Origin: an uncultured Bacilli bacterium | GTDB taxonomy: Bacteria; Bacillota_I; Bacilli_A; RF39; UBA660 | Assembly: GCA_934130175.1 (NCBI GenBank) | Contig: CAKOXP010000008.1 | Span: forward strand, 181 to 64,180 | Reading direction: 5' to 3' | Length of the DNA stretch: 64,000 nt | Shown here: piece by piece, positions 2,371 to 63,055 of the stretch | Layout: each line of letters starts with the position of its first letter | How positions within the stretch are numbered: position 1 is the stretch's first letter | Made by a program: the position numbers and the translations under genes | Notes under the pieces: generated by a model | The model's input: only the letters and a program-made list of their open reading frames with translations | What the model was told of the DNA's origin: nothing | Databases searched by the model: none

Positions 2371-2389
2371 TTTATCATTCCTCTCTTAA

Positions 2390-3421: not shown

Positions 3422-3605
3422 ATTTGTAATTATTATTTTTCATTATCAACTTTATTATTTTCATCTTTTCACCTTCCATTATAATTAAAGTATACTTTAT
3501 TTTTTAATTCATTTCAATTGATTTTCACTAAATTTACAACTTAACTTCACTCTATCTTCACAAAAAATGAATAGACTTATTATGTACAGAAAGGAGATAT
3601 ATAAA

Positions 3606-10684: not shown

Positions 10685-13600
10685 CTAGTTAATAGGTTTT
10701 AATTCTTTATCTAAAATAGAATATAAATATAATTCTATTTTTTTATTGGTTCTTTTACTAATAGCTTCCTTATAACCTTCTAATTGTTTAGTATATGCAT
10801 CATCTAAAACATTCTTTAATTTATAATCAATTATTATAATAGTATCAGTATTTTCAATCATCAAATCAATAATTCCTGTCTTAAATTCATTATCTTTCTG
10901 ATAAATAAATTCGTATTCTTTATACATTTTAGAATTCAAATTATCTTTAATGATTTTTTGATTAAGGAAAGCTTCTACTAATTCTTTTTCTTTATTTGAA
11001 ATAACATCATAATCTGGATTATTAAAATCAATAAGTTCAAATATTTCATGAATTTTTGTACCTAACTTCATCTTGGAAATATCTTCAAGACTATTTAGAC
11101 TAACAACATTTTTAGAAAAGTGTTCTTCTTTTAAGACTTCTTTAGAAAAAGATTTTTCTAAAACTTTTAAATTATCTTCTACTAATAAACTATTATTATC
11201 AGAACCACTTTTATTAATAAGGTAATCTTTAGTACAATCTACTTCTATTTCCTTAATATATTCTTCAATATAATTATAAGTAAAATACATCATATCTTTA
11301 AATGAAGTCATCATATTCTTTTGATAATTGCTTGGATTTTCTATTAGTTTTTCACTATCAAACTCAGGCATAACTATTATCATTTTTTCTTTTGCTCTAG
11401 TAAGTGCAACATACAATAATCTAATTTTTTCTGATAATTCTTCTTCTTTTGTATCAAGTTTTAACAAAGTTTTATAAATAGTATCTTTCTGATAATTATT
11501 AAAATAAGGAATAATTAAACCATACTTGTTACTATAGAGTATTGAATCATTTAATTCCCTAAAACTAAATTTCTTAGTAAACCCAGCAAAGTAACAAACA
11601 GGATACTCTAAACCTTTTGATTTATGAATAGTCATAATTTTTACGGAGTTTGATTCTGAAGTATTAAGGGAAAATGTTTTTTTGGTATCGTTTTCAAAAA
11701 TATTTTCTAAGTAATCAACAAAATCAGATATAGTCATCCCATTAGATTCAAAATCATTAAGTAAATTGTAAAAATATTCTAATCTTACTCTTCCTACTTT
11801 GACATCAGTAAGTTTAAGTAAATTTTCTTCATAATTAAATATTTCAAGTAATTTTAAGAAAAATACTTTAGGTGAAGTCTCATAATAATAATTATATAAT
11901 TCTTCACATTTCTTATAAATAATTGTATCTTTATAATTACCAGTTTTTATTGTATGGAATAACTCTTCATCAGAAAGTTCAAATAAGAAACTTCTACCGA
12001 GGGATAAATAAGCATATTTAAAACTATTATCGAAAGATTCTTTATCAATAGCTTCTTCTAATTTTAAAATATTTTTAATAATTAAGATATCACTACTGCT
12101 TTTAATTTCTTCATCTTTATACAAGGTAAGAGGAATTCCTAAGTATTCAAATACTTTCTTATATAAATCAAAATCTCTAGTTCGATCAAGTAAAATTACA
12201 AAGTCACTATACTCTGCTTTTCTTAGGATTAAAGTATCTTTATCAAATATCAAATAATTATTTTCTATTTTTTCTTTGATATCTTTTCCTATCGCAAAGA
12301 TTTCTTTTTCTGTATCACTAAACTTGGTATCTTCTTTTTTATAAGTCAAGATTTCAAAATCATAATTTTGATTAGTTTTACCCTCTTCAATATAAGTGTT
12401 ATTACCAAATACCATTTGATGTGACTTTCTATAAGCAGCTCCCCCTAAATCATCAAACATTAAGTTATTGAATACTAGATTAATATTATCTAAAACTTCT
12501 TTTCTCGATCTAAAGTTTTTAAGTAAATCTATTTTTATACCACTATCTGTATTTGCATATAAATCATATTTATTTTTAAAGATATTAGGATTTGCATTTC
12601 TAAATCTATAGATAGATTGTTTAATATCTCCAACCATATAAACATTATTTTTACTTATTAAAGAAACAAAATATTCTTGGATATCGTTAGTATCTTGGTA
12701 CTCATCGACCATTATTTCATTAAATTTATTTGTCAACTCATCTCTAACACTAGAATTTTCTTCTACTATTTTTATAGCAAACCTACTAATATCATTGAAG
12801 GAATACATGTTGTTTTCCTGTTTTATTTTTGAAAAGCTATCATCAAATAAATTAAGTATTTCAATAATTAGTCTCATATTAGATTTAGTTGATAATATTT
12901 CTTCTCTTATTTGTTCTGTATTTTCGTAAACACATAAACTTTTAATATTAGTAACAATACTTGATATTTCTTTTTTTATATTTTTAGCCTCAGTATCAGC
13001 ATCTTTATCTATATTTGGTAATCTAAATTCAATGGATTTAACTACCTCATTATAGTTTCTTGCTTTAAGTAAAGGATTAATTACTTGATCAAGTTTTTCC
13101 ATATACTTCAAATCTAAATATAAGGATAAGCTTTTTATATCTTCTTCAATGTAAGATTTGTATTTTTCGATTACATCAAAATAAGAAGAAATGGCTTTAT
13201 CAATAAATTCATCATTGTAATATGTATCAAGGTAAGTGTTAAGATATTTTTTCTTATCTATCTTCATATCTAACTTATCACTAATCTTAATGAGTAATGC
13301 TTTTAATTGTTCATCATCCTTATAGCAAAAATCTTTAATAAAGTGTTTAAATTCCAAACTTCCATTAGAGTAATACTCATCAAAGATTTCATCCATCAAT
13401 TTTTTCTTATAGATATTAATTAAAGCATCATCACTAATTCCAACATTTCTATCTAGACCAAGTAAATAATGATATTTTTTAACAATACTTAGAGAAAAGC
13501 TATCAAATGTTGTTATATATGCTGAATCTATTAAATCAAGTTCTGATATCATATTTTCTTTTTTTAATTTTTTTCTAATACGATCTTTCATTTCTTTAGC

Positions 13601-13774
13601 AGCAGCATTAGTAAATGTCATAATTAATAATTCGTCAATATGAACTCCACTTTTAATTTTTCTCAATACTCTTTCGGTAAGAACGGCTGTCTTACCACTA
13701 CCTGCTCCTGCTGAAACGATAATATTATTATGGTCTAAGTTTATCGCATCAGTTTGTTCTTTTGTCCAAGCCAT
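10685..13774 (-). CDS. addA: ATP-dependent helicase/nuclease subunit A (UvrD-like helicase with C-terminal RecB-type nuclease)
   Basis: Walker A GAGSGKT, VDEYQDTN, C-terminal IIIDYKLK nuclease motif. addB lies nearby on the same strand. Confidence 0.85.
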   Translation of the reverse strand: MAWTKEQTDAINLDHNNIIVSAGAGSGKTAVLTERVLRKIKSGVHIDELLIMTFTNAAAKEMKDRIRKKLKKENMISELDLIDSAYITTFDSFSLSIVKKYHYLLGLDRNVGISDDALINIYKKKLMDEIFDEYYSNGSLEFKHFIKDFCYKDDEQLKALLIKISDKLDMKIDKKKYLNTYLDTYYNDEFIDKAISSYFDVIEKYKSYIEEDIKSLSLYLDLKYMEKLDQVINPLLKARNYNEVVKSIEFRLPNIDKDADTEAKNIKKEISSIVTNIKSLCVYENTEQIREEILSTKSNMRLIIEILNLFDDSFSKIKQENNMYSFNDISRFAIKIVEENSSVRDELTNKFNEIMVDEYQDTNDIQEYFVSLISKNNVYMVGDIKQSIYRFRNANPNIFKNKYDLYANTDSGIKIDLLKNFRSRKEVLDNINLVFNNLMFDDLGGAAYRKSHQMVFGNNTYIEEGKTNQNYDFEILTYKKEDTKFSDTEKEIFAIGKDIKEKIENNYLIFDKDTLILRKAEYSDFVILLDRTRDFDLYKKVFEYLGIPLTLYKDEEIKSSSDILIIKNILKLEEAIDKESFDNSFKYAYLSLGRSFLFELSDEELFHTIKTGNYKDTIIYKKCEELYNYYYETSPKVFFLKLLEIFNYEENLLKLTDVKVGRVRLEYFYNLLNDFESNGMTISDFVDYLENIFENDTKKTFSLNTSESNSVKIMTIHKSKGLEYPVCYFAGFTKKFSFRELNDSILYSNKYGLIIPYFNNYQKDTIYKTLLKLDTKEEELSEKIRLLYVALTRAKEKMIIVMPEFDSEKLIENPSNYQKNMMTSFKDMMYFTYNYIEEYIKEIEVDCTKDYLINKSGSDNNSLLVEDNLKVLEKSFSKEVLKEEHFSKNVVSLNSLEDISKMKLGTKIHEIFELIDFNNPDYDVISNKEKELVEAFLNQKIIKDNLNSKMYKEYEFIYQKDNEFKTGIIDLMIENTDTIIIIDYKLKNVLDDAYTKQLEGYKEAISKRTNKKIELYLYSILDKELKPIN

Positions 13775-13822
13775 ATCTTTTCACCCTCTTATCAAAAGTT
13801 AATCTTACATATATTTAATATA

Positions 13823-14413
13823 TCATAAAACAAATACTTTAAACAAACATTTAAGAAGATTATGTCTCTGATATCTATAAATAGTTACTACTATAAATAA
13901 TATAAAAATATATAGTAACACCGCAAATACCGGTAGTAAAAATTTTTTAATATTTTGATTTGCGATTTTCATTTTATATTCATCTAAAGAATATTTCTTC
14001 TTCCATCTGTTTAATTTTCCTTTTGCGCATTTTATATACAATTGATTAGCAAACATTACCCAAAATGTTTTTTCAATAATAATTGATAAAAAGAACAAGA
14101 AATCGGAAAAGTTAAAAAATCCCAAATTAATAAAACTACCAATATAAGTATTAAAATAAACAAATAATAAACTCAGTAATTCAAGGAAAAATCCAACAAA
14201 GAAACAATTTCTATAACAAAAATATAGTCCTCCAAGTAAAAATACTTTTAAATTATTAGTATTATGTATTATATCATCATACTCATACCCTAACATAATT
14301 TCTAAATCACTATTTTCACTCTTTGTTTTTTTGATATAGTTTCCATTTTTCATATACCCACAAACCATACAATAATCTTTAAAATTAGATTTTCCACATT
14401 TAGGACAATTCAT
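13823..14413 (-). CDS. Zinc-ribbon membrane protein (DUF2628-like)
   Basis: N-terminal CPKCG...CMVCG, then LLGGLYFCYRNCFF and several TM helices. Extended -10 (TGcTATAAT, minus strand, 14450..14458) upstream. Confidence 0.4.
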   Translation of the reverse strand: MNCPKCGKSNFKDYCMVCGYMKNGNYIKKTKSENSDLEIMLGYEYDDIIHNTNNLKVFLLGGLYFCYRNCFFVGFFLELLSLLFVYFNTYIGSFINLGFFNFSDFLFFLSIIIEKTFWVMFANQLYIKCAKGKLNRWKKKYSLDEYKMKIANQNIKKFLLPVFAVLLYIFILFIVVTIYRYQRHNLLKCLFKVFVL

Positions 14414-14487
14414 AAAAACACCAATCTTTCAATTCTTATTATCAAGCTAATTATAGCATAGTATTGTAAGATTTTTTCTAGTTTTTT

Positions 14488-14518
14488 CTTGTTTAATTTA
14501 TCGAACATGTGTTATATT
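14488..14518 (+). promoter_or_regulatory. Unit 1 promoter with overlapping LexA (Cheo-box-like) operator CGAACATGTGTTAT (14502..14515)
   Basis: TTGTTT -35, 17-18 nt spacer, TTATAT/TATATT -10. The 14-mer matches the Firmicute consensus CGAACATATGTTCG at 11 of 14 positions and overlaps the -10. Confidence 0.55.
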
Positions 14519-14583
14519 TAACTTGGAACATTTAGTTGTTGAGTGTCTACCTCTAATCTTTATAGAGAGGAGGTTATTGATAT

Positions 14584-14667
14584 ATGGGAAAGAAAGATTT
14601 TTTAATTACTATCTTACTCACTATTATCATATTATTAATAGCTCTACTCTTCATAACATTGAAGTAG
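14584..14667 (+). CDS. 27-aa hydrophobic peptide MGKKDFLITILLTIIILLIALLFITLK (type I toxin-like)
   Basis: SD AGAGGAGG 8-9 nt upstream. The ORF length is conserved in all three units despite 4 substitutions. Single TM flanked by Lys. Confidence 0.6.
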   Translation: MGKKDFLITILLTIIILLIALLFITLK

Positions 14668-14676
14668 TATCACCTA

Positions 14677-14766
14677 TAAATAAAAACGGCACTCATCTCT
14701 TTCAAAGATAAGTGCCTCTCAAACAAATTTGGGTAGACATTCTACTTGTCAAACTGAATGTTCCCC
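14677..14766 (-). ncRNA. Candidate antisense RNA, unit 1 (3' end defined by a minus-strand terminator at 14677..14716)
   Basis: Minus strand reads GGCACTTATCT-ttgaaag-AGATGAGTGCC followed by gtttttattta. A possible TAAAAT -10 lies at 14773..14778, so the 5' end is uncertain. Confidence 0.3.
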
Positions 14767-14836
14767 TTTTTTATTTTATGCAAGAATACTTGCTACATAC
14801 ATAATAACATATTCTTTTTATTTTTTCTAGTTTTTT

Positions 14837-14867
14837 CTTGTTTAATTTATCGAACATGTGTTATATT
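14837..14867 (+). promoter_or_regulatory. Unit 2 promoter with LexA-box-like operator (14851..14864)
   Basis: -35 TTGTTT at 14838..14843, -10 at 14861..14867, CGAACATGTGTTAT overlapping it. Confidence 0.55.
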
Positions 14868-14932
14868 TGACTTGGAACATTTAGTTGTTGAGTGTCTACC
14901 TCTAATCTTTATAGAGAGGAGGTCTTTGATAT

Positions 14933-15016
14933 ATGGGAAAGAAAGATTTTTTAATCTTTATCTTACTTATTATTATCATTTTACTTATAAGCCTACTCTT
15001 CATTATCTTGAAGTAG
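14933..15016 (+). CDS. 27-aa hydrophobic peptide MGKKDFLIFILLIIIILLISLLFIILK (type I toxin-like)
   Basis: SD AGAGGAGG. Nucleotide-identical ORF in unit 3. Confidence 0.6.
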   Translation: MGKKDFLIFILLIIIILLISLLFIILK

Positions 15017-15024
15017 TAAATCCT

Positions 15025-15116
15025 ATAAATAAAAATGACACTCATCCGCAAAGATAAGTGTCTATCAAACCAATTTAGGTAGACATTCAACTAAGCAAAA
15101 AAACTGAATGTTCCCT
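15025..15116 (-). ncRNA. Candidate antisense RNA, unit 2 (terminator 15025..15062)
   Basis: Minus strand reads GACACTTATC-tttgcg-GATGAGTGTC followed by atttttattta. It overlaps the 3' UTR and terminator of the peptide mRNA. Confidence 0.3.
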
Positions 15117-15187
15117 TTTTTTATTTTATGCAAGAATACTTGCTACATACATGATAACATACTCTTTCTATTTTTTCTAGTTTTTTT

Positions 15188-15218
15188 CTTGTTTATTTTA
15201 TCGAACATGTGTTATATT
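15188..15218 (+). promoter_or_regulatory. Unit 3 promoter with LexA-box-like operator (15202..15215)
   Basis: Same architecture as units 1 and 2. Confidence 0.55.
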
Positions 15219-15283
15219 TGACTTGGAACATTTAGTTGTTGAGTGTCTACCTCTAATCTAGAAAGAGAGGAGGTCTTTGATAT

Positions 15284-15367
15284 ATGGGAAAGAAAGATTT
15301 TTTAATCTTTATCTTACTTATTATTATCATTTTACTTATAAGCCTACTCTTCATTATCTTGAAGTAG
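15284..15367 (+). CDS. 27-aa hydrophobic peptide, identical to the unit 2 peptide
   Basis: SD AGAGGAGG; ATG 15284, TAG 15365-15367. Confidence 0.6.
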   Translation: MGKKDFLIFILLIIIILLISLLFIILK

Positions 15368-15375
15368 TAAATCCT

Positions 15376-15465
15376 ATAAATAAAAATGACACTCATCCGC
15401 AAAGATAAGTGTCAAATCCTAACATTTAGGTAGACATTCAACTTTGCAAAACTGAATGCTTTCCT
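15376..15465 (-). ncRNA. Candidate antisense RNA, unit 3 (terminator 15376..15413)
   Basis: Same hairpin and T-run as unit 2. Confidence 0.3.
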
Positions 15466-15545
15466 TTTTTTATTTTATGCAAGAATACTTGCTACATACA
15501 TAGTATCATAATATTAATTTTTTTTCAATATATGCTTTCTTAAGA

Positions 15546-17852
15546 TTAATCATCCAAGAAAGATAAATCGTTCTGTTTTTCTAAAGTAATAGTATCCTTA
15601 TTAGTCATAAAGCAAAGATCTTTATACTTACAATAACAACAAGATAAATTAGAGTTATCCATCACTTTGGGATCAATTCTAAAATCTGCATCCAAGATAT
15701 AATCAACTGCTTCATTAATTTTCTTATCCGTATAAGTTAAGATGTTATCAAATTCTTCATCATTAAGAACCTTTGCATAAGCAGAAAATGATGAATCCTT
15801 ATTTAATTTCATACTTTTGATAAGTTCACTCTTCTCATAAGTTTTATCAAAATCACTTAATACTTCTAAATCTGCTGTCGAATATCCTTGTAATTTTAAA
15901 TTTTCAAGTCTCATTTCTTCTAAAGTTTTTGAAGAAGAAAAGCTATTATTTGAATTTAAAACTTTTTGTAAATATATACCAGCAATTCTTGGATTTGTAA
16001 ATAATCCTGATTTATTAACTAAATATAAATATATAGGTAACTGCATACTTAAACCGTATTTTAAGTTATTAATATTTGTCGTAATACTTCCTGTTTTATA
16101 ATCAATTATACTAACTAGATTATTGTGATACATTATTTTATCTATTTTACCAGTTAAGATTGTATCTATTTGTTTATCTAATTTAACATTAACTTCTTTT
16201 TCATATAATTTATCTTTAAAATTTGTTAGTAAATCTTGATCCTTAATTATTCTAATATCTTCTTTTAAATCTTCTTTTAAATTGTCTAAGAAAAATCTTT
16301 CTTTTAAACTCAAGGTTTGTTTTTCTAAATAAGAATCCCATTCCCTATCTAAATTAAATAATGGATTATCCATAACTGAAAATATATAATGAAATAAATT
16401 ACCAATAACAGTTGAAAAATTCGATTTATATGGATCTATTTTCAAAATATACTTTATATAATATTGAAACTTACATAGATAAAAACTATTTAGTGAAGTA
16501 TAACTTACTTTTAGATATGAATTTAAGTATTCATAGAGTTCTTCTTTCTTAACATTCTTATATTTGTTGTCATATGTATTATATGGAATCACATAATGAC
16601 TATATAATTTCTTTAGATAATCATCTATTTCATTATATTTATAATAATTATCTAATTTTTCACCAAGTAATAACTTATTATATAAATTACTATTAGTAGT
16701 ATTCATTTTATAATCTATAACTTCTAGATTTAATTCATCTATTAAACTTGATTTTAGATATTCATTAAAACTACTTTTATCTTTGTATGATAAAATGCAA
16801 TTTTTTGTATTTGAAATTATACTAATAACACGTTCTTTTTCTTTCTTATTTTTTATATATGAAGGCATTAATCCAACAGTTAGTTTTAACTTATCGGACA
16901 AATAGTCCTCATCCTTATATATCTTAGGCAATACATCTTGATTTAAACTTACAATAAATAAATAGTTATCATCATCTACTATAGGAATATCAGAGACTAC
17001 ATTAATAGCATTATCATATCTAGTAGAGCTTAGTTTAGTACTTTTTAAAGTATCAACTAAAAATTCTTGATAATTAGGACTATCTTCAATATCTTTTAAA
17101 GAATTTATCACATCAACCAACTTTTTAACTATAGGATTAATAAATCCTGGTAATTCCTTTGTTTCTAAATATTTCTTAACAATACTAGTACCATATAAAT
17201 TTTGATTTAAATTAATATTAAGTGGAATATTATAATAAGAAAATAATTTATACATTAGAAAACTATATTCACTATCTACATTAGAAATAATTATCTTATT
17301 TAGTGGTACACCTTTATCTATTAAAGATAGGATATTTTCTATCACGAATATAATTTCCTCTTCTAAGCTACTACAATGATATACAGGAATATTTATATTC
17401 TTTGGTTTCAAGTTAACAATTTTATTATTTTTGAAAATTTCTTCTTCATAAGGTTCAAGCAAAAAATAATTATATATTAAAATATTCTTATTTTTTATAT
17501 AGTTTTTGAATAAGAAGTTAAATTCCAAATAGTTATTTTCTATTAAATCTTTCTTTATATTTTGAAGACTAATTAGCTTGGAATCATTATAATTCTTTTC
17601 TACATCTATAAAATATAAATTGTTTATGATTGTCTTTGCTGTTGAAATATTATAATGATATTTAGAAATTAAATAATCAAGTGTTTTATTCTCATATGAA
17701 AAAAAGTAAGATTTTCTAAACTCCTCTAAAGAGATAAATTTTATTGGTACTAGGCTATCTGAATACTTTTTTAAAATATATTTTTTTGTTTTGTTAGGAG
17801 TAATTAATATTGTATCTTCATTCATGTTAAGTTCTAAATCCATAAGTTTCAC
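15546..17852 (-). CDS. addB: Helicase-nuclease subunit B, compact form (768 aa)
   Basis: C-terminal RecB-type nuclease IIDYKTG plus an Fe-S cysteine pattern (an upstream Cys in FYLCKF, then C-x2-C-x5-C in SCCYCKYKDLC). No intact Walker A at the N-terminus. Confidence 0.8.
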   Translation of the reverse strand: MKLMDLELNMNEDTILITPNKTKKYILKKYSDSLVPIKFISLEEFRKSYFFSYENKTLDYLISKYHYNISTAKTIINNLYFIDVEKNYNDSKLISLQNIKKDLIENNYLEFNFLFKNYIKNKNILIYNYFLLEPYEEEIFKNNKIVNLKPKNINIPVYHCSSLEEEIIFVIENILSLIDKGVPLNKIIISNVDSEYSFLMYKLFSYYNIPLNINLNQNLYGTSIVKKYLETKELPGFINPIVKKLVDVINSLKDIEDSPNYQEFLVDTLKSTKLSSTRYDNAINVVSDIPIVDDDNYLFIVSLNQDVLPKIYKDEDYLSDKLKLTVGLMPSYIKNKKEKERVISIISNTKNCILSYKDKSSFNEYLKSSLIDELNLEVIDYKMNTTNSNLYNKLLLGEKLDNYYKYNEIDDYLKKLYSHYVIPYNTYDNKYKNVKKEELYEYLNSYLKVSYTSLNSFYLCKFQYYIKYILKIDPYKSNFSTVIGNLFHYIFSVMDNPLFNLDREWDSYLEKQTLSLKERFFLDNLKEDLKEDIRIIKDQDLLTNFKDKLYEKEVNVKLDKQIDTILTGKIDKIMYHNNLVSIIDYKTGSITTNINNLKYGLSMQLPIYLYLVNKSGLFTNPRIAGIYLQKVLNSNNSFSSSKTLEEMRLENLKLQGYSTADLEVLSDFDKTYEKSELIKSMKLNKDSSFSAYAKVLNDEEFDNILTYTDKKINEAVDYILDADFRIDPKVMDNSNLSCCYCKYKDLCFMTNKDTITLEKQNDLSFLDD

Positions 17853-22794: not shown

Positions 22795-23616
22795 TTATTT
22801 TTGACACTTACTACAGAAATATGTTGAACGACCATTTATTTTTATGACATCTATCTTATTACCACAATTAGGACAGTTAGCATTTTTCTTTCCATGAACA
22901 GCAAGCTCATTTTGAAACAAGCCATGCACTCCTTCACTAGAAGTAAAGCTTTTTATAGTAGTACCACCTAATTTAATTGCTTTTTCTAAAATAATTTTTG
23001 TATTATCAATTATTTTTTGACATTCATCAACAGTAATAGTTTTTGATTTTCTTCTAGGATCAATCCTACTTGCAAACAAAATTTCATCATCATAAATATT
23101 TCCTATTCCTGTAATAATAGTCTGATCTAATAAACTTGTCTTAATTGGAATAGATTTTGTACTTAATTTATCACATAAATATGTAGCAGTTAGATTTTTA
23201 TCATTATACTCATATCCCATATCTTTTAATGGAACTTGATTTAAATAATTATTTTTATCAAGTAAATACATTTTTCCAAATTTTCTAACATCGTGAAAAC
23301 GCATTTCAATATCATCATCGAGTAAAAAGACTACATGTTCATGTTTGTTTAAAGTATCGCCCTTTTTCCTAAAGGTAAATTTTCCTTCCATACGTAGGTG
23401 AATTAATAAAACATAATCATCTAAAATAAAGACTAACCACTTACCTCTTGTTGTTATATCATGAATAGTTTGATTTTTGATTTTTTTAGTAAACTCTTTG
23501 GCACTAGGAGATGATATTATATTATCCCAATAAACAGAAACATCTTTTATTGTCATTTCTAAAACTTTTTGTTTTAGTGCTTTTACTACTGTGATTACTT
23601 CTGGTTTTTCTGGCAT
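22795..23616 (-). CDS. mutM: Formamidopyrimidine-DNA glycosylase
   Basis: N-terminal MPEKPEV and a C-terminal zinc finger CPNCG...GRSTYFCSKCQK. Confidence 0.93.
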   Translation of the reverse strand: MPEKPEVITVVKALKQKVLEMTIKDVSVYWDNIISSPSAKEFTKKIKNQTIHDITTRGKWLVFILDDYVLLIHLRMEGKFTFRKKGDTLNKHEHVVFLLDDDIEMRFHDVRKFGKMYLLDKNNYLNQVPLKDMGYEYNDKNLTATYLCDKLSTKSIPIKTSLLDQTIITGIGNIYDDEILFASRIDPRRKSKTITVDECQKIIDNTKIILEKAIKLGGTTIKSFTSSEGVHGLFQNELAVHGKKNANCPNCGNKIDVIKINGRSTYFCSKCQK

Positions 23617-23633
23617 ATTATACTACCTCCTTC

Positions 23634-26258
23634 TTATTTTGCTTCATACCAATTAGAACCTGTTTCAATATCAACAACTAATGGAACATCTAATTTATAG
23701 GTGTTTTCCATAATATCTTTAACAATTTTCCTAACTGTTTCAGCCTCATCGTTTAAAACATTAAACACAAGTTCATCGTGTACTTGAATTAACATTTTAC
23801 TCTTTAAACCTTGTTTTTTAAACTCATCATAAATCTCTACCATAGCTTTCTTTAAAATATCCGCTGCGGTACCCTGGATTGGAGTATTTAATGCTATTCT
23901 CTCTCCGGCACTACGAACCATATAGTTTTTATTTTGTAATTCTTCAATTACTCTTTTACGATTCATAAGTGTTTTTACATATCCATTTTTATATGCATCT
24001 TGTTTTTCTTTATCCATATATTCCTTAATACCTGGATAAGTCTCTAGGTAATTATCAATAAATTCTTTAGCCGTTTTTATATCAATTCCTAAATCTTCAC
24101 TTAATCCAAAGCTACTTATTCCATATAAAATTCCAAAGTTAACTGCTTTTGCTGTTCTTCGCATATCTTTAGTAACATCCTCGATTGGAACATGGAAGAT
24201 ATCTGATGCAGTTTTAGCATGAATATCTTGATTGTTTTTGAAAGCTTCGATTAAGTTTGAAGCATCTGATAGTGACGAAAAAATTCTAAGTTCTACTTGA
24301 GAATAATCACTAGATAAAATAATAGAATCATCATCAGGAATAAAAGCTTTTCTAATCAATCTAGAATATTCTGCTCGTGCTGGGATATTTTGTAAATTAG
24401 GATTGATACTAGAAAGTCTTCCTGTTCTAGTTAAAGTTTGTGTAAATATTGTATGAATTCTTCCATCTTCTCTTATTTCATTTTTAAGTCCTACTGCATA
24501 GTTTGTATATAATTTTATTAGTGTTCTATATTCCAATATCTTGTTTACAATAGGATGAGCATCTTTAATTTTTTCTAAAATTTCTTTATTAGTTAGATAT
24601 TGATATCTTTTATTAGCAGAATTATTTCTTTTAGGATATTTTATGCCTAACTTTTCAAACAAAACTTCTCCTAATTGTTTTGGAGACATGATATTAAATT
24701 CATATCCTGCATCTAAATAAATTGCCTGTTCCATATCATTTATATGTTTTTCTAAGTCTTTAGCAACTTCATCTAAATATTCTGAATCAACCTTTATACC
24801 GGTTAATTCCATATCTGCTAGTACTCTAGCTAAAGGCATTTCTATATCTTCAAATAGACTTTTTTCTTCTTCTTTTTCTAACTCTTCTTCTAATTTATCG
24901 TGTGTTTCGTAAATGAATTTAGCTTTTTCTATACATAAAGTTTTTATTTTTTCTTCTTCTACTTCTTTTCTTCTTTTATCAGTTCCATAAGACTCTTCAT
25001 ATGACTCAATATCATAGTCTAACTCTTTTGCTAAATAACTGATATCATCTTTAACATTATAATTTAAAAGATAAGCTGCTATCATTGTATCAAAAATAGT
25101 ATTTTTTTCTTTAATCCCTACGTTATTAAATAAAACTATATTTTTCTTTAAATCATAGGTGTACTTGTTATAAATTGATGAAAATATTTCTTTGTATTTT
25201 TCTAAAGATTCCTTATTTATGAAATATCCATAATCTCCATCATAAATTCCTATTCCAATGATATTTGCCTTACTATATATTGTGCCATCCATTTCAATAT
25301 AATAAGAAAAATCACGGTCTTTTGAAAAGTCATTTATATCTTTTATTTCTAATGTTTTTACCTTTTTTTCTTCTTTTTCTTCATTTTTTAAATCTAGAGT
25401 TGGTAATTTTCTAAGTAATGAGTTAAATTCAAATTCTTGTAACAAACTAATATATTCTTCTAAATTTAGACCATTATATTTTAAATCTTCCAAAGAAAAG
25501 TCAAGTGGTACTTCTCTATAAATTGTAGCCATTTCATAACTCATATAAGCTTTATCTTTATCATTTATAAGTTTTTCTTTTGTCTTACCAGTAACGCTAT
25601 CTATATTTTCATATAAGTTATCTAAACTCTTATATTTGGTAAGTAGATTAATAGCTGTTTTTTCACCTATTCCTTTTACACCAGGAATATTATCACTAGC
25701 ATCTCCCATTAATGCTTTTAAATCTATCATTTTGATAGGTTCTACCCCATAGGTATTCATAAATTCTTGTGTATCCATTCTAACAAAGCCACTAGTCTTT
25801 AAAAGTTTTACATCCACTTCATCACTTATTAATTGAAGCAAGTCTTTATCACTACTTATAATAGTTGCGATAAACTGATCTTCTTCATCAACAATTCTTG
25901 AAACAGTACCAATAATATCATCTGCTTCATAATTATCTATTTCAAAGTGTTTAATTCCCATTGCATCCAAAATTTCTTTAGCTTTAGGAAATTGCTCTTT
26001 TAACTCTTCTGGAGTTGCATTACGTCCTCCCTTATAAAAGTCATATTTATTATGTCTAAAGGATTTTCCTTTATCGAATGCTACTAAAATATAATTAGGT
26101 TCTTCTTCTTTAATGATTTTATTCATCATATTAATAAAACCATATAAAGCATTAGTAGGAAATCCTTTAGAATTTCTCATAATAACACCTTGATAAGCAG
26201 TTGCAAAATAACTTCTAAATAATAAATTATTACCATCCACCAAGATTAATTTTTTCAT
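23634..26258 (-). CDS. polA: DNA polymerase I
   Basis: 874 aa with a 5'-nuclease N-terminus and family A polymerase motifs (DYSQVELR, RRTAKAVNFGILYG, QVHDELV). Confidence 0.95.
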   Translation of the reverse strand: MKKLILVDGNNLLFRSYFATAYQGVIMRNSKGFPTNALYGFINMMNKIIKEEEPNYILVAFDKGKSFRHNKYDFYKGGRNATPEELKEQFPKAKEILDAMGIKHFEIDNYEADDIIGTVSRIVDEEDQFIATIISSDKDLLQLISDEVDVKLLKTSGFVRMDTQEFMNTYGVEPIKMIDLKALMGDASDNIPGVKGIGEKTAINLLTKYKSLDNLYENIDSVTGKTKEKLINDKDKAYMSYEMATIYREVPLDFSLEDLKYNGLNLEEYISLLQEFEFNSLLRKLPTLDLKNEEKEEKKVKTLEIKDINDFSKDRDFSYYIEMDGTIYSKANIIGIGIYDGDYGYFINKESLEKYKEIFSSIYNKYTYDLKKNIVLFNNVGIKEKNTIFDTMIAAYLLNYNVKDDISYLAKELDYDIESYEESYGTDKRRKEVEEEKIKTLCIEKAKFIYETHDKLEEELEKEEEKSLFEDIEMPLARVLADMELTGIKVDSEYLDEVAKDLEKHINDMEQAIYLDAGYEFNIMSPKQLGEVLFEKLGIKYPKRNNSANKRYQYLTNKEILEKIKDAHPIVNKILEYRTLIKLYTNYAVGLKNEIREDGRIHTIFTQTLTRTGRLSSINPNLQNIPARAEYSRLIRKAFIPDDDSIILSSDYSQVELRIFSSLSDASNLIEAFKNNQDIHAKTASDIFHVPIEDVTKDMRRTAKAVNFGILYGISSFGLSEDLGIDIKTAKEFIDNYLETYPGIKEYMDKEKQDAYKNGYVKTLMNRKRVIEELQNKNYMVRSAGERIALNTPIQGTAADILKKAMVEIYDEFKKQGLKSKMLIQVHDELVFNVLNDEAETVRKIVKDIMENTYKLDVPLVVDIETGSNWYEAK

Positions 26259-26301
26259 ATTACATCACCTAAAGTACATTATATCATACTTTTTGTGAAA
26301 C

Positions 26302-26451
26302 TTATCTTGCTAATTTAATAGTAAGTGCTTGATTTGTATTTGTACTTGCATGATCTAGTTCAGTAACTCTATTAGATATTAATAAAGTTGATGCTATAGC
26401 CATCAAATATATAAATGTTACAAACATACCTTTCTTTACTATTTCCATCAT
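26302..26451 (-). CDS. 49-aa single-TM peptide divergent from lexA (candidate SOS-induced division inhibitor, SosA/YneA-like by position)
   Basis: Below the track size cutoff. SD GGAGAGG lies 6 nt before ATG 26451. Peptide: MMEIVKKGMFVTFIYLMAIASTLLISNRVTELDHASTNTNQALTIKLAR. Confidence 0.5.
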   Translation of the reverse strand: MMEIVKKGMFVTFIYLMAIASTLLISNRVTELDHASTNTNQALTIKLAR

Positions 26452-26481
26452 TTTAATCCTCTCCTTTCTCTTGACAATTTA

Positions 26482-26510
26482 AGTATACATCATACACTTG
26501 TTCGTGTCAA
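26482..26510 (-). promoter_or_regulatory. Consensus promoter (TTGACA-17-TATACT) with a LexA-like box CGAACAAGTGTATG in the spacer
   Basis: Minus strand: -35 at 26505..26510, box at 26491..26504, -10 at 26482..26487. Confidence 0.6.
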
Positions 26511-26519
26511 TGATATTTT

Positions 26520-26559
26520 AAAACATTTGTTTGACAATTTACACTATTAATGTTAAACT
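26520..26559 (+). promoter_or_regulatory. lexA promoter (TTGACA-17-TAAACT) with the dyad AAAACATTTGTTTG overlapping the -35
   Basis: -35 at 26531..26536 and -10 at 26554..26559. The AAAC-N4-GTTT dyad at 26520..26533 is a degenerate Cheo box (10 of 14). Confidence 0.45.
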
Positions 26560-26580
26560 AAAGTTACAAGGAGGGATTGT

Positions 26581-27198
26581 ATGGAAAAGTTAACTGAAAA
26601 ACAAGAATATATTTTACAGATTCTGAAACAATTAAAAGCTAAAAATGGTTATGCCCCTACTGTTAGAGAAATTGGTGCTGCTGCTAATTTACATTCACCA
26701 GCAACTATTCATTTTCATCTAAAAAAACTTGAAGAAAAAGGATTCATCAAAAAAGATACAAGTAAAAATAGAACTATTGAGATATTAGTTCCAAATGAAT
26801 TTGAAGAAACTAATGAAAATATTGTTGAGGTTCCATTACTTGGAAAAGTTACAGCTGGTACTCCAATAGAAGCCATAGAAACACCTGATGAATATTTTTC
26901 ATTACCGGCTAATTTGGTTACTAATAAAAAGGAAGTTTTCACCTTAAAAGTAAGTGGAGAATCCATGATTAATGTTGGAATCTATGATGGAGATATCTTA
27001 ATTGTAGAAAGACAAAATACTGCTAAAAATGGTGACACAGTAGTTGCTATGAATAAGGATAATGAAGCAACAGTTAAAACATTCTATAAAGAAAATGGAC
27101 ATTTTAGATTACAGCCTGAAAATGATACAATGGATCCTATCATTCTTGATCAAGTTACGATATTAGGTAAAGCTGTTGGATTATACAGAAAATTTTAA
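26581..27198 (+). CDS. lexA: LexA repressor (S24 autopeptidase)
   Basis: N-terminal wHTH (GYAPTVREIG), an AG cleavage site (VTAGTP), Ser in VSGESM and Lys in ATVKTF. Confidence 0.95.
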   Translation: MEKLTEKQEYILQILKQLKAKNGYAPTVREIGAAANLHSPATIHFHLKKLEEKGFIKKDTSKNRTIEILVPNEFEETNENIVEVPLLGKVTAGTPIEAIETPDEYFSLPANLVTNKKEVFTLKVSGESMINVGIYDGDILIVERQNTAKNGDTVVAMNKDNEATVKTFYKENGHFRLQPENDTMDPIILDQVTILGKAVGLYRKF

Positions 27199-27212
27199 TA
27201 AAAAAATAAAAA

Positions 27213-27240
27213 ATGCTGATATTAAGTCAGCGTTTTTTTA
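27213..27240. terminator. Bidirectional terminator between lexA and the convergent gene
   Basis: A-run, GCTGA-tattaag-TCAGC, then T7. Confidence 0.7.
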
Positions 27241-28461
27241 TGGCATTGTGTATGAAAATCCAAATACGTATGTTGAACCTGCATATATATGAGTAGTGTA
27301 AGTTTTTCCTCTTTCGTTATTATGATTTGAAGCATATATTCTTCCAAACTTATAACTACCATATCTATTTGAATAATCTGTAGCACTATACAATTTTAAA
27401 TCATCTTGACCATTGGCATTCGACCAAGTTGGAAAACTTGTTATATCAGATCTTCCAAATACAGCAACCTCTACATCGCCAGGACCAAATTCATAATATC
27501 TGTAAACGACTCCTGATATTGGAAATTCATCAATTTTATCCTTATAACTAACTAGATTACCACCTTGATTATTTAATATTGGATAACCAGTACGCGTAGC
27601 TTTGATTGTATTGTTAATCAAATAAGTATAACTATTATTTCTATTTAAAACAGCATAAAAACCAGAATTAGAAGTTATTTGTATAGTCATATTCTCGATA
27701 TTAGCTTTTGCTGAATCATCTGTTCCTAAAGTACTATTATTAACAAAACCATATCCCGTTGATTCTATGGTTCCACCTTCTGTTTTTATTCTTCCACCTT
27801 CATCATTATATAGTGCAGTCCCGTCTGTTCCTTCTTTTGTCAATTTTATGTTAGCTTTTTTGATATTTAAAGACCCCTTATTTCTGATTGTCCATCCTAT
27901 AGTGTTAGAAAAATTACCATTTTCAATGGTACATCTTCCATCACTATCATTAAATAATGAATTACTACTACTACCAGAGTAAGTATATGTACCATCTGTT
28001 ATAGTAAGCTCACCATTATTATAAATTGTAGGTTCAGAACCATTGCAATCAATACTGCCGTTGCTTATCTTGACTTTTGAACCAGATGCAATCGAAATAC
28101 ATCCATTAATTTTCTTACCACTAAGATTAATTTCTGCTATATTCTTACCAATATTTATTGTATTAGTTTCTGTTATATCACTTTGTACAATGATTTTAGA
28201 ACCTTCAGGAGCATCTGCTACAGCATCACCTATTGATTCATAGTGTCTTTTTGTTGAATAAGGAGTTTGAACTGTAACAGGAGTTGTTATATTTTTTTCT
28301 AGTTCATCAACTACAGTTTGTGTAAATTCTTTACTATTTTTACGATTAAAAGCCATTATACTTATAATCATTCCCATAACCAAAACGATTACTATAAGTA
28401 ATCCATAAAGCATTGTAGAAACCGCAAATCCCTTATTATTCATTTTTTTCATTATTGTCAC
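27238..28461 (-). CDS. Surface protein: pilin-like N-terminus, beta-helix-like middle, C-terminal GBS Bsp-like repeat
   Basis: The probable start is ATG 28452 (MKKMNNKGFAVSTMLYGLLIV...). The middle is rich in short N/G/T strands. The C-terminus FPTWSNANGQDDLKLYSAT...GSYKF...ASNHNNERGKTYTTHIYAG matches the Bsp-like repeat pattern as I remember it. Confidence 0.55.
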   Translation of the reverse strand: MTIMKKMNNKGFAVSTMLYGLLIVIVLVMGMIISIMAFNRKNSKEFTQTVVDELEKNITTPVTVQTPYSTKRHYESIGDAVADAPEGSKIIVQSDITETNTINIGKNIAEINLSGKKINGCISIASGSKVKISNGSIDCNGSEPTIYNNGELTITDGTYTYSGSSSNSLFNDSDGRCTIENGNFSNTIGWTIRNKGSLNIKKANIKLTKEGTDGTALYNDEGGRIKTEGGTIESTGYGFVNNSTLGTDDSAKANIENMTIQITSNSGFYAVLNRNNSYTYLINNTIKATRTGYPILNNQGGNLVSYKDKIDEFPISGVVYRYYEFGPGDVEVAVFGRSDITSFPTWSNANGQDDLKLYSATDYSNRYGSYKFGRIYASNHNNERGKTYTTHIYAGSTYVFGFSYTMP

Positions 28462-35465: not shown

Positions 35466-36155
35466 CTATTCCTTTATTTGGAAATGATTACCACTATCTA
35501 AGTATAATACCCCTTTTCTTCCATCTAGTTGAGTTAATACTTTATTGTAGTAATTTAGCATTCTAAATTTAGTCAAAGTTAAATAAACACTATTATCATC
35601 GTCCATATATAATAAAAATCTATCTTTATCAAATTCATTAGGTGTGTAGGTTATTTCTGATACCTTTCCTAAAATATCTTTGTCTATTTTCTTTAATCCT
35701 TTTATTAACATATCATACTTAGTATCTGGTACATAATTCATAAGTCTTGGGATTCTAAATAAAGTTACTTCTTCATCTTCCTTTATACTTTTTTTATTTT
35801 CAAAGACAATGGTATGATCAACTTCATAGCTAAATAAGGGAGTATTTTCTTCTATATCTATTTCTAAGACATTATAGAATTTCTTTTTTATTATTGCCTT
35901 TTTTATGTATGGGCTTTTTTCTAATTTTTCTTCAATCAAACTACTTCTAGTTAGAAAAAATGATGGATAATCTTTAATATTTGCAAGTTCTATAATATAA
36001 TCATCATTTAAATAATTAGTATTTTTAATAATAATATTTTTTATTTTTGTATGTAGTAACAAATATATTAATAAAGCAAAAAAAGCTAGTATCAAAAGAC
36101 CTAGAAATAATCTAAATACTCTTAATTTTTTCTTCTTTACTAGTTTCTTTGCCAT
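35466..36155 (-). CDS. divIB: Cell division protein DivIB/FtsQ
   Basis: Basic N-terminus, single TM, then POTRA-like region. Position is between murB and ftsA. Start is ATG 36155 (SD GGGAG 8 nt upstream). Confidence 0.7.
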   Translation of the reverse strand: MAKKLVKKKKLRVFRLFLGLLILAFFALLIYLLLHTKIKNIIIKNTNYLNDDYIIELANIKDYPSFFLTRSSLIEEKLEKSPYIKKAIIKKKFYNVLEIDIEENTPLFSYEVDHTIVFENKKSIKEDEEVTLFRIPRLMNYVPDTKYDMLIKGLKKIDKDILGKVSEITYTPNEFDKDRFLLYMDDDNSVYLTLTKFRMLNYYNKVLTQLDGRKGVLYLDSGNHFQIKE

Positions 36156-36160
36156 ATAGC

Positions 36161-37066
36161 TTACTCCCAATTTACAAATTCTTGTTCTACTCTTAAATCA
36201 ACATTATATTCTTCTTTTACTTTTTCTCTTGCAAGAGTAATTAAATCTCTTACATCAGATGCTTTTGCATTACCCGTATTAATAACAAAGTTAGCATGCT
36301 TATCACTTATCATAGCTCCACCTAATTTATATCCTTTTAGACCACACTTTTCGATTAGTTCTCCAGCAAACATACCGGTTGGATTTCTAAAAACACTTCC
36401 GGCACTTGGATAGTTAAGTGGCTGAGACTCTACTCTTCTTTTCAAACGACTTTTCATTACTTCTTCTATTGCATCTTTCTTACCTTTTTCTAGACGAATA
36501 ACTGCTTCTAAGCAAATATAATCTGGATGTTTTTGAAGGAAAGATGTACGATAGTGAAAATTCATTTCTTTATTTTCAAGTTCTACTATTTTAAAATCTT
36601 TTGTTAAAACTTTTACTGATTGAACAACATATCCCATGTCGCTTTTATAAGCACCAGCATTCATGAATATTGCTCCTCCAACAGTTCCAGGAATACCAGC
36701 AGCAAACTCTAATCCCGTTAATGAATTTTTTAAAGCAACACGAGAAAGCTTCATTAAAGAATAACCTGCCCCTACTTTAATTTTATTATTAATTATTTCA
36801 ATATTATCAAATTCAGTTAGTTTAATTAAAATTCCATCAAATAAATCATCACTAAAAATCAAATTTGAACCATTTCCTAACATCTTATACTTTATATTTT
36901 TTGATCTAATAAATTTCATTAACTTAACTAACTTTTCAGTATTTTTAGGATAGATAACGCATCTAGCTTTACCACCTATTTTATAAGTAGTAAATTTTTT
37001 TAAGGAAGCATCTGTTTCAATTTTTCCTATATTAAGTTGTTTTAAATCTGTTAACCATTCACTCAT
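36161..37066 (-). CDS. murB: UDP-N-acetylenolpyruvoylglucosamine reductase
   Basis: FAD-binding GNGSNL and the SAGSVFRNP motif. Confidence 0.93.
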   Translation of the reverse strand: MSEWLTDLKQLNIGKIETDASLKKFTTYKIGGKARCVIYPKNTEKLVKLMKFIRSKNIKYKMLGNGSNLIFSDDLFDGILIKLTEFDNIEIINNKIKVGAGYSLMKLSRVALKNSLTGLEFAAGIPGTVGGAIFMNAGAYKSDMGYVVQSVKVLTKDFKIVELENKEMNFHYRTSFLQKHPDYICLEAVIRLEKGKKDAIEEVMKSRLKRRVESQPLNYPSAGSVFRNPTGMFAGELIEKCGLKGYKLGGAMISDKHANFVINTGNAKASDVRDLITLAREKVKEEYNVDLRVEQEFVNWE

Positions 37067-45838: not shown

Positions 45839-46810
45839 TTATTTATTTAATGCTTCTACTAATTCACTTTTCTTCATAGTAGAATAACCTTTAATTCCAG
45901 CTTCTTTTGCTTTTGCTTTTAAGTCAGCTAAAGTAAGACTAGATAAGTCAGTAGTTTCTTCTTTTGAAATTTCTTTAACTTCTTCTACTTCCTTCTTTTC
46001 TTCTTTAACAACTTTTTTTTCTTCTTTTACTTCTTTTTTGAATTCTTTCTTATCTTCTTTGAAAGATTTTTTTGAATTCTTTTTGAAATCTTTTGTTTTT
46101 TCATCTTCTGTTACGTAATCAATTACTTCATTACCATTAACTTCAGCGATAGCGTTAGTAAGTGCTCCTATGATTAATTTAACAGCACGAACTGCATCAT
46201 CGTTTCCTGGAATAACGTAATCAACAACATCTGGATCACAGTTAGTATCTACTATACCAAATACAGGGATTCCTAGAATATGAGCTTCTTTAATTGCGAT
46301 TTCTTCTTTACGAGGATCAACAATAACCATTGCTTGTGGAGCTTTTTTCATCTCACGGATTCCTCTTAAGTTTTTATTTAATTTTTCATATTCTTTTTTG
46401 ATATTAACTACTTCTTTTTTAGGTAATAAATCAAAAGTACCATCAGCTTCCATTTTTTCAATTTCATCTAATCTTTTAATTCTACTTCTTATTGTCTTGA
46501 AGTTAGTTAAAGTTCCACCTAACCATCTTTCATTCATGAAATACATGTTAGTTCTAACAGCAGCTTCTTCTACTGCTTCTTGAGCTTGTTTCTTAGTTCC
46601 AACAAATAAAACCTTTCCACCATCAGTAGCGATTTGTTTTAAAGCTTCATATGCTTCTTCTAATTTTTTAACTGTTTTAGCTAAATCGATAATATAAATA
46701 TCATCACGTGTTGTATAGATGTATTCCTTCATTTTTGGATTCCATCTTCTTTTTTGGTGTCCGAAATGTACACCAGCTTCTAATAAATAATTCATTGATA
46801 TTACTGTCAT
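45839..46810 (-). CDS. rpsB: 30S ribosomal protein S2 with an ~87-aa K/E-rich C-terminal extension ending in a Rho_N/SAP-like motif
   Basis: The canonical S2 core runs to about residue 236. It is followed by [24 protein letters not shown]... and then [32 protein letters not shown]. Confidence 0.93.
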
Positions 46811-62731: not shown

Positions 62732-63040
62732 TTATTTATCTTCTGTAATTGTTCTTATATTATTATTATTATAACTCAATCCTTGGTTTGCTGCAACCTC
62801 TTGGATTTTTGTAAGAGATGCTAATTCATCAATTGTCATAGAAATACTTTCATTAGTTTTTTCTTGTTTTTCAATTTCTTTCTTTTGTTGTTCAACTTCA
62901 AAGTTTATTTTTGCAAGTGTTGCTTTGGAAAACACGATAGAAAGTGGAGATACTAATAATAGAAAAACTGCTAAAGTGTATAAGAATTTTTCTGTTTTAG
63001 ACATCTTTAATTGTTTTTTCATTTTTTTCTTCTTTTTCAT
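62732..63040 (-). CDS. ftsL: Cell division protein FtsL
   Basis: Basic N-terminus, single TM, coiled coil. Position is between rsmH and the PBP. ATG 63040 is preferred (AAGGG 9 nt upstream). Confidence 0.7.
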   Translation of the reverse strand: MKKKKKMKKQLKMSKTEKFLYTLAVFLLLVSPLSIVFSKATLAKINFEVEQQKKEIEKQEKTNESISMTIDELASLTKIQEVAANQGLSYNNNNIRTITEDK

Positions 63041-63055
63041 GAAAATCATCCCTTT

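Follow-up and report, generated by a model that had tools for sequence, protein, structure and literature searches.

A conserved small membrane protein gene divergent from lexA behind a LexA-type box, a candidate SOS division inhibitor of uncultured gut Bacilli

In the 64,000-nucleotide stretch of DNA analysed here (positions 181 to 64,180 of contig CAKOXP010000008.1 from an uncultured Bacilli bacterium; hereafter the window), the gene lexA lies divergent from a 49-codon open reading frame (ORF) for a small membrane protein. Judged by comparison with related genomes, this ORF is very probably a genuine gene for a small membrane protein, conserved together with the LexA-type box in front of it. 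Based on its position, regulation and architecture, the gene can be read as a LexA-controlled SOS inhibitor of cell division, an interpretation to which we assign a probability of roughly 55%. The first-pass annotation, which was made from the letters alone, had regarded the ORF as the positional and functional analog of yneA of Bacillus and sosA of Staphylococcus. The positional and regulatory side of this analogy is well supported by the conservation of the ORF and of two boxes in the intergenic region, termed box 1 and box 2. The elements of this region are as follows:

26302..26451 (stop codon included), minus strand: small-ORF gene, 49 codons, for a small bitopic membrane protein, the founding member of an undescribed family
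26464-26458, minus strand: Shine-Dalgarno sequence GGAGAGG, 6 nt ahead of the ATG
26487-26482, minus strand: -10 element TATACT
26491..26504: box 1, CGAACAAGTGTATG as read on the minus strand, a candidate LexA-type (Cheo) operator that takes up the spacer from the -35 element on
26510-26505, minus strand: -35 element TTGACA
26520..26533: box 2, AAAACATTTGTTTG, with the dyad AAAC-ATTT-GTTT at 26521-26532, overlapping the lexA -35 element by 2 nt
26531-26536 and 26554-26559, plus strand: lexA promoter, TTGACA, 17 nt, TAAACT, with a TG ahead of the -10 element (extended -10)
26581..27198, plus strand: lexA, with the domains LexA_DNA_bind (PF01726, winged helix) and Peptidase_S24 (PF00717)

The product of the small ORF, MMEIVKKGMFVTFIYLMAIASTLLISNRVTELDHASTNTNQALTIKLAR, comprises 49 aa and is encoded from 26451 to 26302 on the minus strand; its start codon and that of lexA lie on opposite strands, 129 nt apart. 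The promoter, its spacer, the Shine-Dalgarno sequence, the 49-codon ORF, the lexA promoter and its dyad were all found where the first-pass annotation had placed them, although the promoter described there as perfect matches the consensus at 11 of 12 positions, not at 12. The description of the ORF as divergent from lexA was correct but incomplete, since polA-fpg follow directly downstream of the ORF on the same strand. It had further been called unannotated, which does not hold for the family, because identical or nearly identical products are listed as "hypothetical protein" in public metagenome-assembled genomes (MAGs; e.g. MDO5003748.1).

Taken by themselves, the features of this single sequence are unremarkable. 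Promoter matches of at least 11/12 positions occur 15 times in the window compared to about 7 times in simulated sequence of the same composition (27.5% GC), and box 1 shows two mismatches to CGAACN4GTTCG, a quality of match found 8 times where 3.3 would be expected by chance. The window is rich in ORFs of 25-49 codons, and another 49-aa ORF is located inside polA. Therefore, the significance of promoter, box and ORF size can only originate from conservation across species.

Relatives were collected by a synteny-guided scan with one genome per species, in which 80 loci were located via LexA, and by a profile search. LexA relatives were numerous, with identities of 74-100%. All 80 loci come from uncultured gut MAGs labelled as Bacilli, Tenericutes/Mollicutes, Erysipelotrichaceae or "Mycoplasma sp. 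CAG:877", a lineage which we take to be RF39. In 75 of the 80 loci, lexA and polA are divergent neighbours (the syntenic set), and 64 of these 75 comprise a gap of about 300-470 nt with an ORF of 38-60 aa (median 51) whose place and strand are the same throughout. The remaining 11 showed a lexA-polA gap of only 116-221 nt and no such small ORF. A hidden Markov model (HMM) of the family matched 67 of the 80 loci and nothing else within these loci of 8.6 kb each.

The substitution pattern points to selection on the amino acid sequence. The ratio of non-synonymous to synonymous substitution rates (Nei-Gojobori) had a median of 0.20 and was below 1 in all 61 informative close pairs. In one pair (L079/L080), 13 synonymous differences stand against a single non-synonymous one. 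The nucleotide diversity at codon positions 1, 2 and 3 amounted to 0.51, 0.34 and 0.55, and within the cluster of at least 90% identity to which the window peptide itself belongs (19 sequence variants), all 15 listed members were of full length. Accordingly, as judged from these sequence comparisons, the small ORF is a real protein-coding gene under purifying selection. The conservation of a small transmembrane (TM) ORF in relatives, which the first-pass annotation had named as a check on its proposal, was thereby found in 64 of the 75 syntenic species loci.

A neighbour-joining tree of LexA and the N-terminus of PolA placed the 11 species without the ORF at no fewer than five separate positions within ORF-bearing clades. 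The module of promoter, box 1 and ORF thus looks ancestral and repeatedly deleted as a unit. Since it was lost at least five times, it must be dispensable, as checkpoint genes are. The only conserved neighbours of the small ORF are lexA and polA, and no other partner gene is kept nearby.

Some individual loci deviate from this arrangement. The orthologue in L049 (3762-3953) is cut to 38 aa right after the TM helix (…FVSDNYQKLCY) and looks frameshifted or decaying. In L014, a gene for an IS110-like transposase (426 aa, 2337-3617) separates the lexA coding sequence from its promoter/operator region; the whole divergent control region, including the lexA promoter, stays with the small ORF and polA, which leaves lexA without its native promoter. 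In the two most distant loci (L077, 2503-3351; L078, 3021-3851), lexA is divergent not from polA but from a gene of 276-282 aa of unknown function, and the intergenic region comprises two adjacent AAAC-N4-GTTT boxes and no small ORF.

The promoters of the ORF-bearing loci were aligned on their -35 elements. TTGAC, the anchor of this alignment, is present in 64 of 64 loci and is followed by A in 57 of them, while a TATAMT is conserved at the spacing of the -10 element. In the window, the 17-nt spacer between both elements is CGAACAAGTGTATGATG. The clade consensus reads TTGACA CGAACAAnTGT(a/t)(t/c)G nnn TATA(A/C)T, followed by a AAAGGAGAG-type Shine-Dalgarno sequence, also seen 5' of the start codon in related loci, and the ATG. 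A promoter spacer normally needs no fixed sequence. Nevertheless, the 14 positions of box 1 hold 1.12 bits each, compared to 0.33 bits for the last three spacer positions and 0.0-0.3 bits for the unconstrained centre of the lexA promoter spacer.

Within box 1, the left half CGAAC is nearly invariant across the clade, whereas the right half varies between GTATG, GTACG, GTTCG, ATTCG and GTTTG. The core in the window, GAAC-AAGT-GTAT, shows two mismatches to the GTTC half and one to the GTTT half. Some species carry a perfect Cheo-type palindrome (CGAAyAAnTGTTCG, e.g. CGAATAAATGTTCG), and in others box 1 takes the form CAAACAAGTGTTTG known from the lexA promoter. The strong and the weak half have changed places in L073 (ATACGTTTGTTCGA), which fits a palindromic dimer site and not a directional promoter element. 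With a position weight matrix trained on 63 orthologous sites, the window left out, box 1 of the window scored 21.7 bits, while the maximum in 40 simulated 64-kb sequences was 17.9 bits. Box 1 stands beside TTGAC in 61 of the 64 ORF-bearing loci, with variant forms in the other three, and in none of the 11 loci lacking the ORF. The LexA-like box that had been noticed in the promoter is therefore conserved throughout the clade and co-occurs with the ORF. The earlier idea of an organism-specific operator variant was rejected, because the same Cheo-type box with its invariant left and degenerate right half is found clade-wide. The three cassette boxes which had been taken as support for such a variant belong to a different kind of element, the type I-like modules described below.

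The LexA operators of Firmicutes are GAACN4GTTC in B. subtilis and GAACN4GTTT or GAACN4GTTC in clostridia, including those of their lexA and recA (PMC4234289). Box 1 resembles this Cheo box, with cGAAC-N4-GTat in the window and GAAC-N4-GTTC, GTAC, ATTC or GTTT in the relatives, and overlaps core promoter elements in the same manner; it differs by the degenerate right half in most species. Box 2, with its AAAC-N4-GTTT, likewise overlaps a core promoter element, whereas the first position of its half-site is A, not G, in 75 of 75 loci. A box 2 of the CAAACAAATGTTT type is located over the lexA -35 element in all 75 syntenic loci, those without the ORF included, so that the dyad described for this place by the first-pass annotation is not only present but fully conserved. 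The lexA promoter itself is kept in the relatives as TGTTAAACT ... TTGACA. On the basis of this sequence pattern, box 2 is presumed to be the autoregulatory LexA operator. Box 1 lies 16 bp from it, and the two would form a compact divergent SOS control region in which box 2 represses lexA and box 1 the small ORF; for the binding itself, we infer it from the operator sequences.

The repressor appears to be conventional. The alignment shows no variation at A92 and G93, presumably the cleavage site, nor at S128 and K166, which by analogy to E. coli LexA we take to be the catalytic Ser/Lys pair. A possible second, distal lexA promoter would overlap box 1:

26471..26498, plus strand: TTGACA, 16 nt, TACACT, matching at 10/12 positions, with the -10 element inside box 1

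Its positions (TTACA ... TACAnT) are partly conserved in the relatives. Such an overlap might account for the frequent GTAT or GTAC, in place of GTTC, in the right half of box 1.

Further boxes and neighbours were observed around this region. In a subclade of four loci (L022, L026, L029 and L031), the intergenic region comprises 380-424 nt, about 100 nt more, and additional LexA-type boxes, such as CGAACATATGTAAA by the lexA -10 element and CGAACAATTGTTTC upstream of the small-ORF promoter; the promoter box of these loci is shifted by one base (TTGACT-ACGAAATAATGTTTG). At 72-109 of the window, three tandem 12-nt repeats (CCAACCCTTGTTCC-like) give spurious LexA-box matches. Convergent with lexA, a gene on the minus strand (27238-28461) codes for a protein of 407 aa whose hydrophobic N-terminus is prepilin-like and whose C-terminal part holds a GBS_Bsp-like repeat. 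Between both genes, a hairpin at 27215-27231, flanked by T-runs on either side, might act as a bidirectional terminator.

The family comprises bitopic proteins of 45-60 aa with one TM helix and with neither name nor domain. The N-terminus is basic (consensus MKKxxKKG in the aligned peptides) and is followed by a well-conserved Gly and a TM helix of about 18-20 hydrophobic residues with an invariant Tyr. Directly after the TM helix, 63 of 64 sequences carry the juxtamembrane motif [D/N]R[I/V]E[R/K]L[D/E], in which Arg and Leu are nearly invariant. The tail is polar and variable, with FRNTNxS in many members. For the window peptide, the most hydrophobic 18-residue stretch comprises residues 8-25 and leaves a polar tail of 24 aa. 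The mean net charge was +2.8 for the N-terminal segment and -0.34 for the tail, and an orientation with the N-terminus inside was favoured in 57 of the 64 sequences. An AlphaFold 2 (AF2) model built with the family alignment showed one continuous helix through the TM segment and the motif, with block means of the predicted local distance difference test (pLDDT) of 82-95 over residues 1-30. From sequence and model, a single N-terminal TM helix with the C-terminus outside is predicted.

Searches for homologues returned the family and little else. A single-sequence search with the 49-aa peptide retrieved nothing beyond one cluster at ≥90% identity. When 5.8 billion proteins were searched with a profile, 91 clusters appeared, all of 40-80 aa, domain-less and described only as "hypothetical protein". 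An exhaustive HMMER search of 1.84 billion representatives resulted in 140 clusters at 50% identity (E ≤0.001). These were 43-84 aa long except for three long proteins (187-676 aa), in which several short stretches matched partially. The longer hits are the same gene called from an in-frame upstream ATG, and the family motif was present in every one of the weakest and odd-length hits that were inspected. When 54 members were scanned against Pfam and NCBIfam, only noise resulted (E ≥0.007), the window peptide had no Pfam match, and a LysM domain was found neither in it nor in the 54 members at E values up to 1. No protein of about 100 aa, the size of YneA, was among the matches of the exhaustive profile search, and no 77-aa protein, the size of SosA, was among the 140 HMMER hits, which is an indirect comparison by size and motif. 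Since no protein of SosA or YneA size was returned, homology to the known inhibitors is absent at the sensitivity of HMMER. The earlier statement that the peptide has no LysM domain and no visible sequence similarity is thus borne out, and as far as these searches reach, the family is undescribed.

The comparison with known SOS inhibitors concerns position and design. In Gram-positive bacteria, the gene divergent from lexA has repeatedly been found to be a LexA-repressed single-TM division inhibitor, with synteny and topology shared but not sequence (PMC6851548), and every characterised single-TM gene at this position is a division inhibitor (PMC6851548, PMC13396833). SosA comprises 77 aa without LysM, with its TM helix at residues 10-30, an extracellular C-terminus and the highest conservation just after the TM helix; it is degraded by CtpA via its C-terminal end, and its homologues are restricted to a narrow clade and to the same chromosomal position (PMC6851548). 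The TM helix of YneA targets TM7 of FtsW, and its LysM domain is required to block septal peptidoglycan (PG) synthesis (PMC13396833). AlphaFold 3 models place the TM helices of YneA, SosA and ChiZ on FtsW TM7, and the extended helix of SosA has been suggested as the blocker (PMC13396833).

With SosA, the window peptide shares the gene position divergent from lexA, a LexA-type box, the N-terminal TM helix and outside C-terminus (here as predicted), the lack of LysM, the conserved segment after the TM helix and homologues confined to a narrow clade at one chromosomal position. The modelled helix of SosA extends past the membrane (PMC13396833), and the same was observed in the AF2 model of this peptide. 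In contrast, no homology was detectable, the peptide is about one third shorter with a tail of 24 aa compared to about 47 aa, and its ORF is located immediately upstream of polA-fpg, with which it is probably co-transcribed. The likeness is one of SosA-type design, drawn by analogy and not by homology, and the peptide belongs neither to the SosA nor to the YneA family. YneA and ChiZ are comparable in the divergent gene position next to lexA, in a promoter containing a LexA box, in bitopic topology with N-terminal TM helix and extracellular C-terminus, and possibly in a TM helix which there targets FtsW (PMC13396833), but they carry the LysM domain missing in this family and no homologous sequence. 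SidA of Caulobacter crescentus resembles the peptide as a very small LexA-regulated single-TM peptide with no extracytoplasmic domain and acts on FtsW, late in division (PMC13396833). Its host, however, is a proteobacterium whose LexA box is different, and the sequences are unrelated. The sidA gene is not known to lie adjacent to lexA.

On the other side of the small ORF, the following features were found:

26286-26278, minus strand: extended -10 promoter of polA, TGATATAAT, 16 nt past the stop codon of the small ORF
23634-26258, minus strand: polA, assigned by Pfam domains
22795-23616, minus strand: fpg/mutM, assigned by Pfam domains, directly after polA

The small ORF lies upstream of polA on the same strand, its stop codon 43 nt from the polA ATG, and this distance is at most 75 nt in 60 of 64 loci. 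No terminator-like site was found between them in the window with the stricter terminator scan. A permissive scan for hairpins with T-runs in the same gap gave weak AT-only stems in 27 loci, which is uninformative at 27% GC and was not considered further. From the missing terminator and the short distance, it follows that the LexA-controlled transcript probably runs into polA-fpg, so that small ORF and polA-fpg would be co-transcribed by a read-through deduced from sequence. At the same time, polA keeps a promoter of its own. In 71 of 75 loci, with the small ORF or without it, a TGnTATAMT precedes the polA ATG by about 27 nt; no conserved -35 element could be recognised for it in the related loci. 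Since this promoter is conserved with or without the ORF, the small ORF is not a polA leader, and the module represents a separate unit between two pre-existing promoters.

Combined, these observations are most likely explained by the following model. The small ORF would be driven by a strong sigma-A-type promoter back-to-back with the autoregulated lexA promoter. Because a Cheo-type LexA box occupies the spacer of this promoter, LexA should occlude it in undamaged cells. Upon DNA damage, RecA-stimulated self-cleavage of LexA would release the promoter. The peptide, with a basic N-terminus in the cytoplasm, a TM helix running into a juxtamembrane helix and a polar tail outside, would insert into the membrane, where TM and juxtamembrane helix may block the septal synthase complex (FtsW, class B penicillin-binding protein (PBP), FtsL and DivIB). 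Division would then be held until repair, as by SosA in S. aureus and YneA in B. subtilis, while the damage-induced transcript would continue into polA-fpg and add inducible to constitutive expression. Candidate targets for such an inhibitor are encoded in the window:

60570-62714: class B PBP with PASTA domains, a candidate target
63056-63982: mraW

The window further comprises a 105-aa ORF in the position of ftsL (62732-63049), murG, murB, a gene for an FtsQ/DivIB-type POTRA protein (35466-36170), ftsA, ftsZ, ftsK and genes of undecaprenyl-phosphate recycling; ftsW itself is not within it. According to this gene content, the host is walled with a standard Firmicutes divisome, so candidate targets exist.

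A number of observations weigh against a LexA-controlled division inhibitor. The peptide has no PG-binding domain according to Pfam, and YneA needs its LysM domain for activity (PMC13396833). Its extracellular tail is poorly conserved and reached a pLDDT of only about 55 in the AF2 model. Taken alone, the window peptide shows no charge bias, since N-terminus and tail each have +1. The clade has lost the module at least five times, and the role of a toxin would suit a small SOS-induced membrane peptide equally well. Concerning the regulation, the right half of box 1 in the window is GTAT instead of GTTC and this half is degenerate clade-wide; the affinity of LexA for box 1 could thus be low. 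Since no independent SOS gene (recA, uvrA, uvrB) is located within the window, the LexA motif of the clade cannot be calibrated. Rho-dependent or weak AT-only terminators may also stand ahead of polA.

The main rival is an SOS-induced membrane-active toxin of the TisB/DinQ kind, which would depolarise or permeabilise the membrane and thereby lead to growth arrest or persistence. TisB and DinQ of E. coli are likewise small hydrophobic peptides under a LexA box; each has an antisense RNA as its partner, and they act by depolarising the membrane. A single hydrophobic TM segment behind a LexA-type box, the lack of a PG-binding domain and a dispensable, repeatedly lost module would all suit such a toxin. 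Nevertheless, neither a convergent promoter nor a terminator of an antisense unit was found within 25900-27400, and the small ORF has no Rfam match, the only Rfam hit in the whole window being a T-box leader. The strong Shine-Dalgarno sequence and promoter come with no obvious translational lock. Furthermore, the extracytoplasmic juxtamembrane motif, the invariant Tyr in the TM helix and the fixed place beside lexA suggest a specific protein partner. The toxin niche also appears to be filled by three cassettes of the same genome, which show a type I layout and a similar box:

14502, 14851 and 15202: LexA-box-like site CGAACATGTGTTAT, one per cassette
14584-14667, 14933-15016 and 15284-15367: very hydrophobic 27-aa ORFs, MGKKDFLI(T/F)ILL...

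The cassettes are tandem units of about 350 bp (14440-15500), triplicated in the window, each with a convergent promoter-like site on the minus strand and a strong minus-strand terminator (3 found compared to 0.2 expected), and are without Rfam match. From this layout, they look like triplicated type I toxin/antisense-RNA modules, possibly under SOS control. They are flanked by a gene for an AddB-like PD-(D/E)XK nuclease (15546-17852) on one side, and an unknown gene and a gene for an AddA-like UvrD helicase (10685-14413) on the other. Altogether, we consider it unlikely that the small ORF codes for a toxin of this kind.

A similarly small chance is given to a LexA-regulated small membrane protein with another role after damage, for example an adaptor or inhibitor of a protease outside the cytoplasm, a regulator of cell-wall hydrolases, or a modulator of competence or transport. 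Conservation, topology and operator are established and would apply here as well, while only analogy ties the peptide to the divisome and its tail is variable; on the other hand, the characterised lexA-divergent single-TM genes of Gram-positives cited above are all division inhibitors, and with only lexA and polA as neighbours no alternative partner gene is conserved nearby. It is distinctly improbable that box 1 is no LexA site and that an ordinary small membrane protein stands beside lexA by chance, behind a constitutive promoter or one of another factor. The departure of the right half-site from GTTC in most species, the counts of boxes (8 compared to 3.3) and promoters (15 compared to about 7), which are not significant alone, and a conservation that may partly serve the overlapping plus-strand promoter (TACAnT inside box 1) could be explained in this way. 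However, this would leave a nearly invariant CGAAC in a spacer that otherwise needs no fixed sequence, perfect palindromes or CAAACAAGTGTTTG in some species, the reversed polarity in L073 and a match to the published Firmicutes LexA consensus (PMC4234289) 16 bp from the autoregulatory box of lexA. Finally, the ORF could be a leader peptide that regulates polA-fpg and whose amino acid sequence is unimportant. It ends 43 nt before polA with no clear terminator and stays by polA in L014 despite the insertion sequence element, but in that locus the whole divergent control region with the lexA promoter stayed with it. Moreover, TM helix and motif are conserved, and 11 species have polA without the ORF. 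Due to the purifying selection on the peptide and the independent conserved polA promoter downstream of the ORF (71 of 75 loci), the leader reading was rejected as very improbable.

Outside these subjects, two further observations were made in the window. The genes for the ribosomal proteins S2 (45839-46810) and L20 (46903-47499) each code for a C-terminal Rho_N-like domain (PF07498), which is an unusual fusion. The T-box leader mentioned above (RF00230, 42389-42593, minus strand, 113.9 bits) is located upstream of pheS-pheT.

SOS-induced membrane-bound division inhibitors are a recurring, non-homologous solution, and each new family shows which features are essential. Should the LexA-controlled inhibitor of division be the right interpretation, the peptide would be the smallest Gram-positive example, acting with about 24 extracellular residues and no LysM domain. 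How a TM helix inhibits FtsW-type synthases is a current question (PMC13396833), and the roughly 140 clusters, as a natural mutational scan, could help to define inhibition by a bare TM and juxtamembrane helix. A more far-reaching version can be put forward only tentatively and is rather doubtful: the domain-less family of about 50 aa would be a minimal Gram-positive SOS checkpoint, in which the TM helix and the seven-residue motif stop FtsW-PBP2B and an obligatory read-through couples polA and fpg to it. In that case, division arrest and repair capacity would be joined in one transcript, a wiring not described for Firmicutes, and the module would go back to the ancestor of a large clade of gut Bacilli, uncultured and with reduced genomes, in which it was lost as a whole on at least five occasions. 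If the proposed function is wrong, a well-supported new small-protein family with a conserved operator still results. In general, an uncultured, genome-reduced gut lineage appears to keep a conventional LexA circuit with an autoregulated lexA, a checkpoint-like peptide and apparently SOS-boxed type I cassettes, and the stacking of promoters suggests that polA and fpg are perhaps wired into it.

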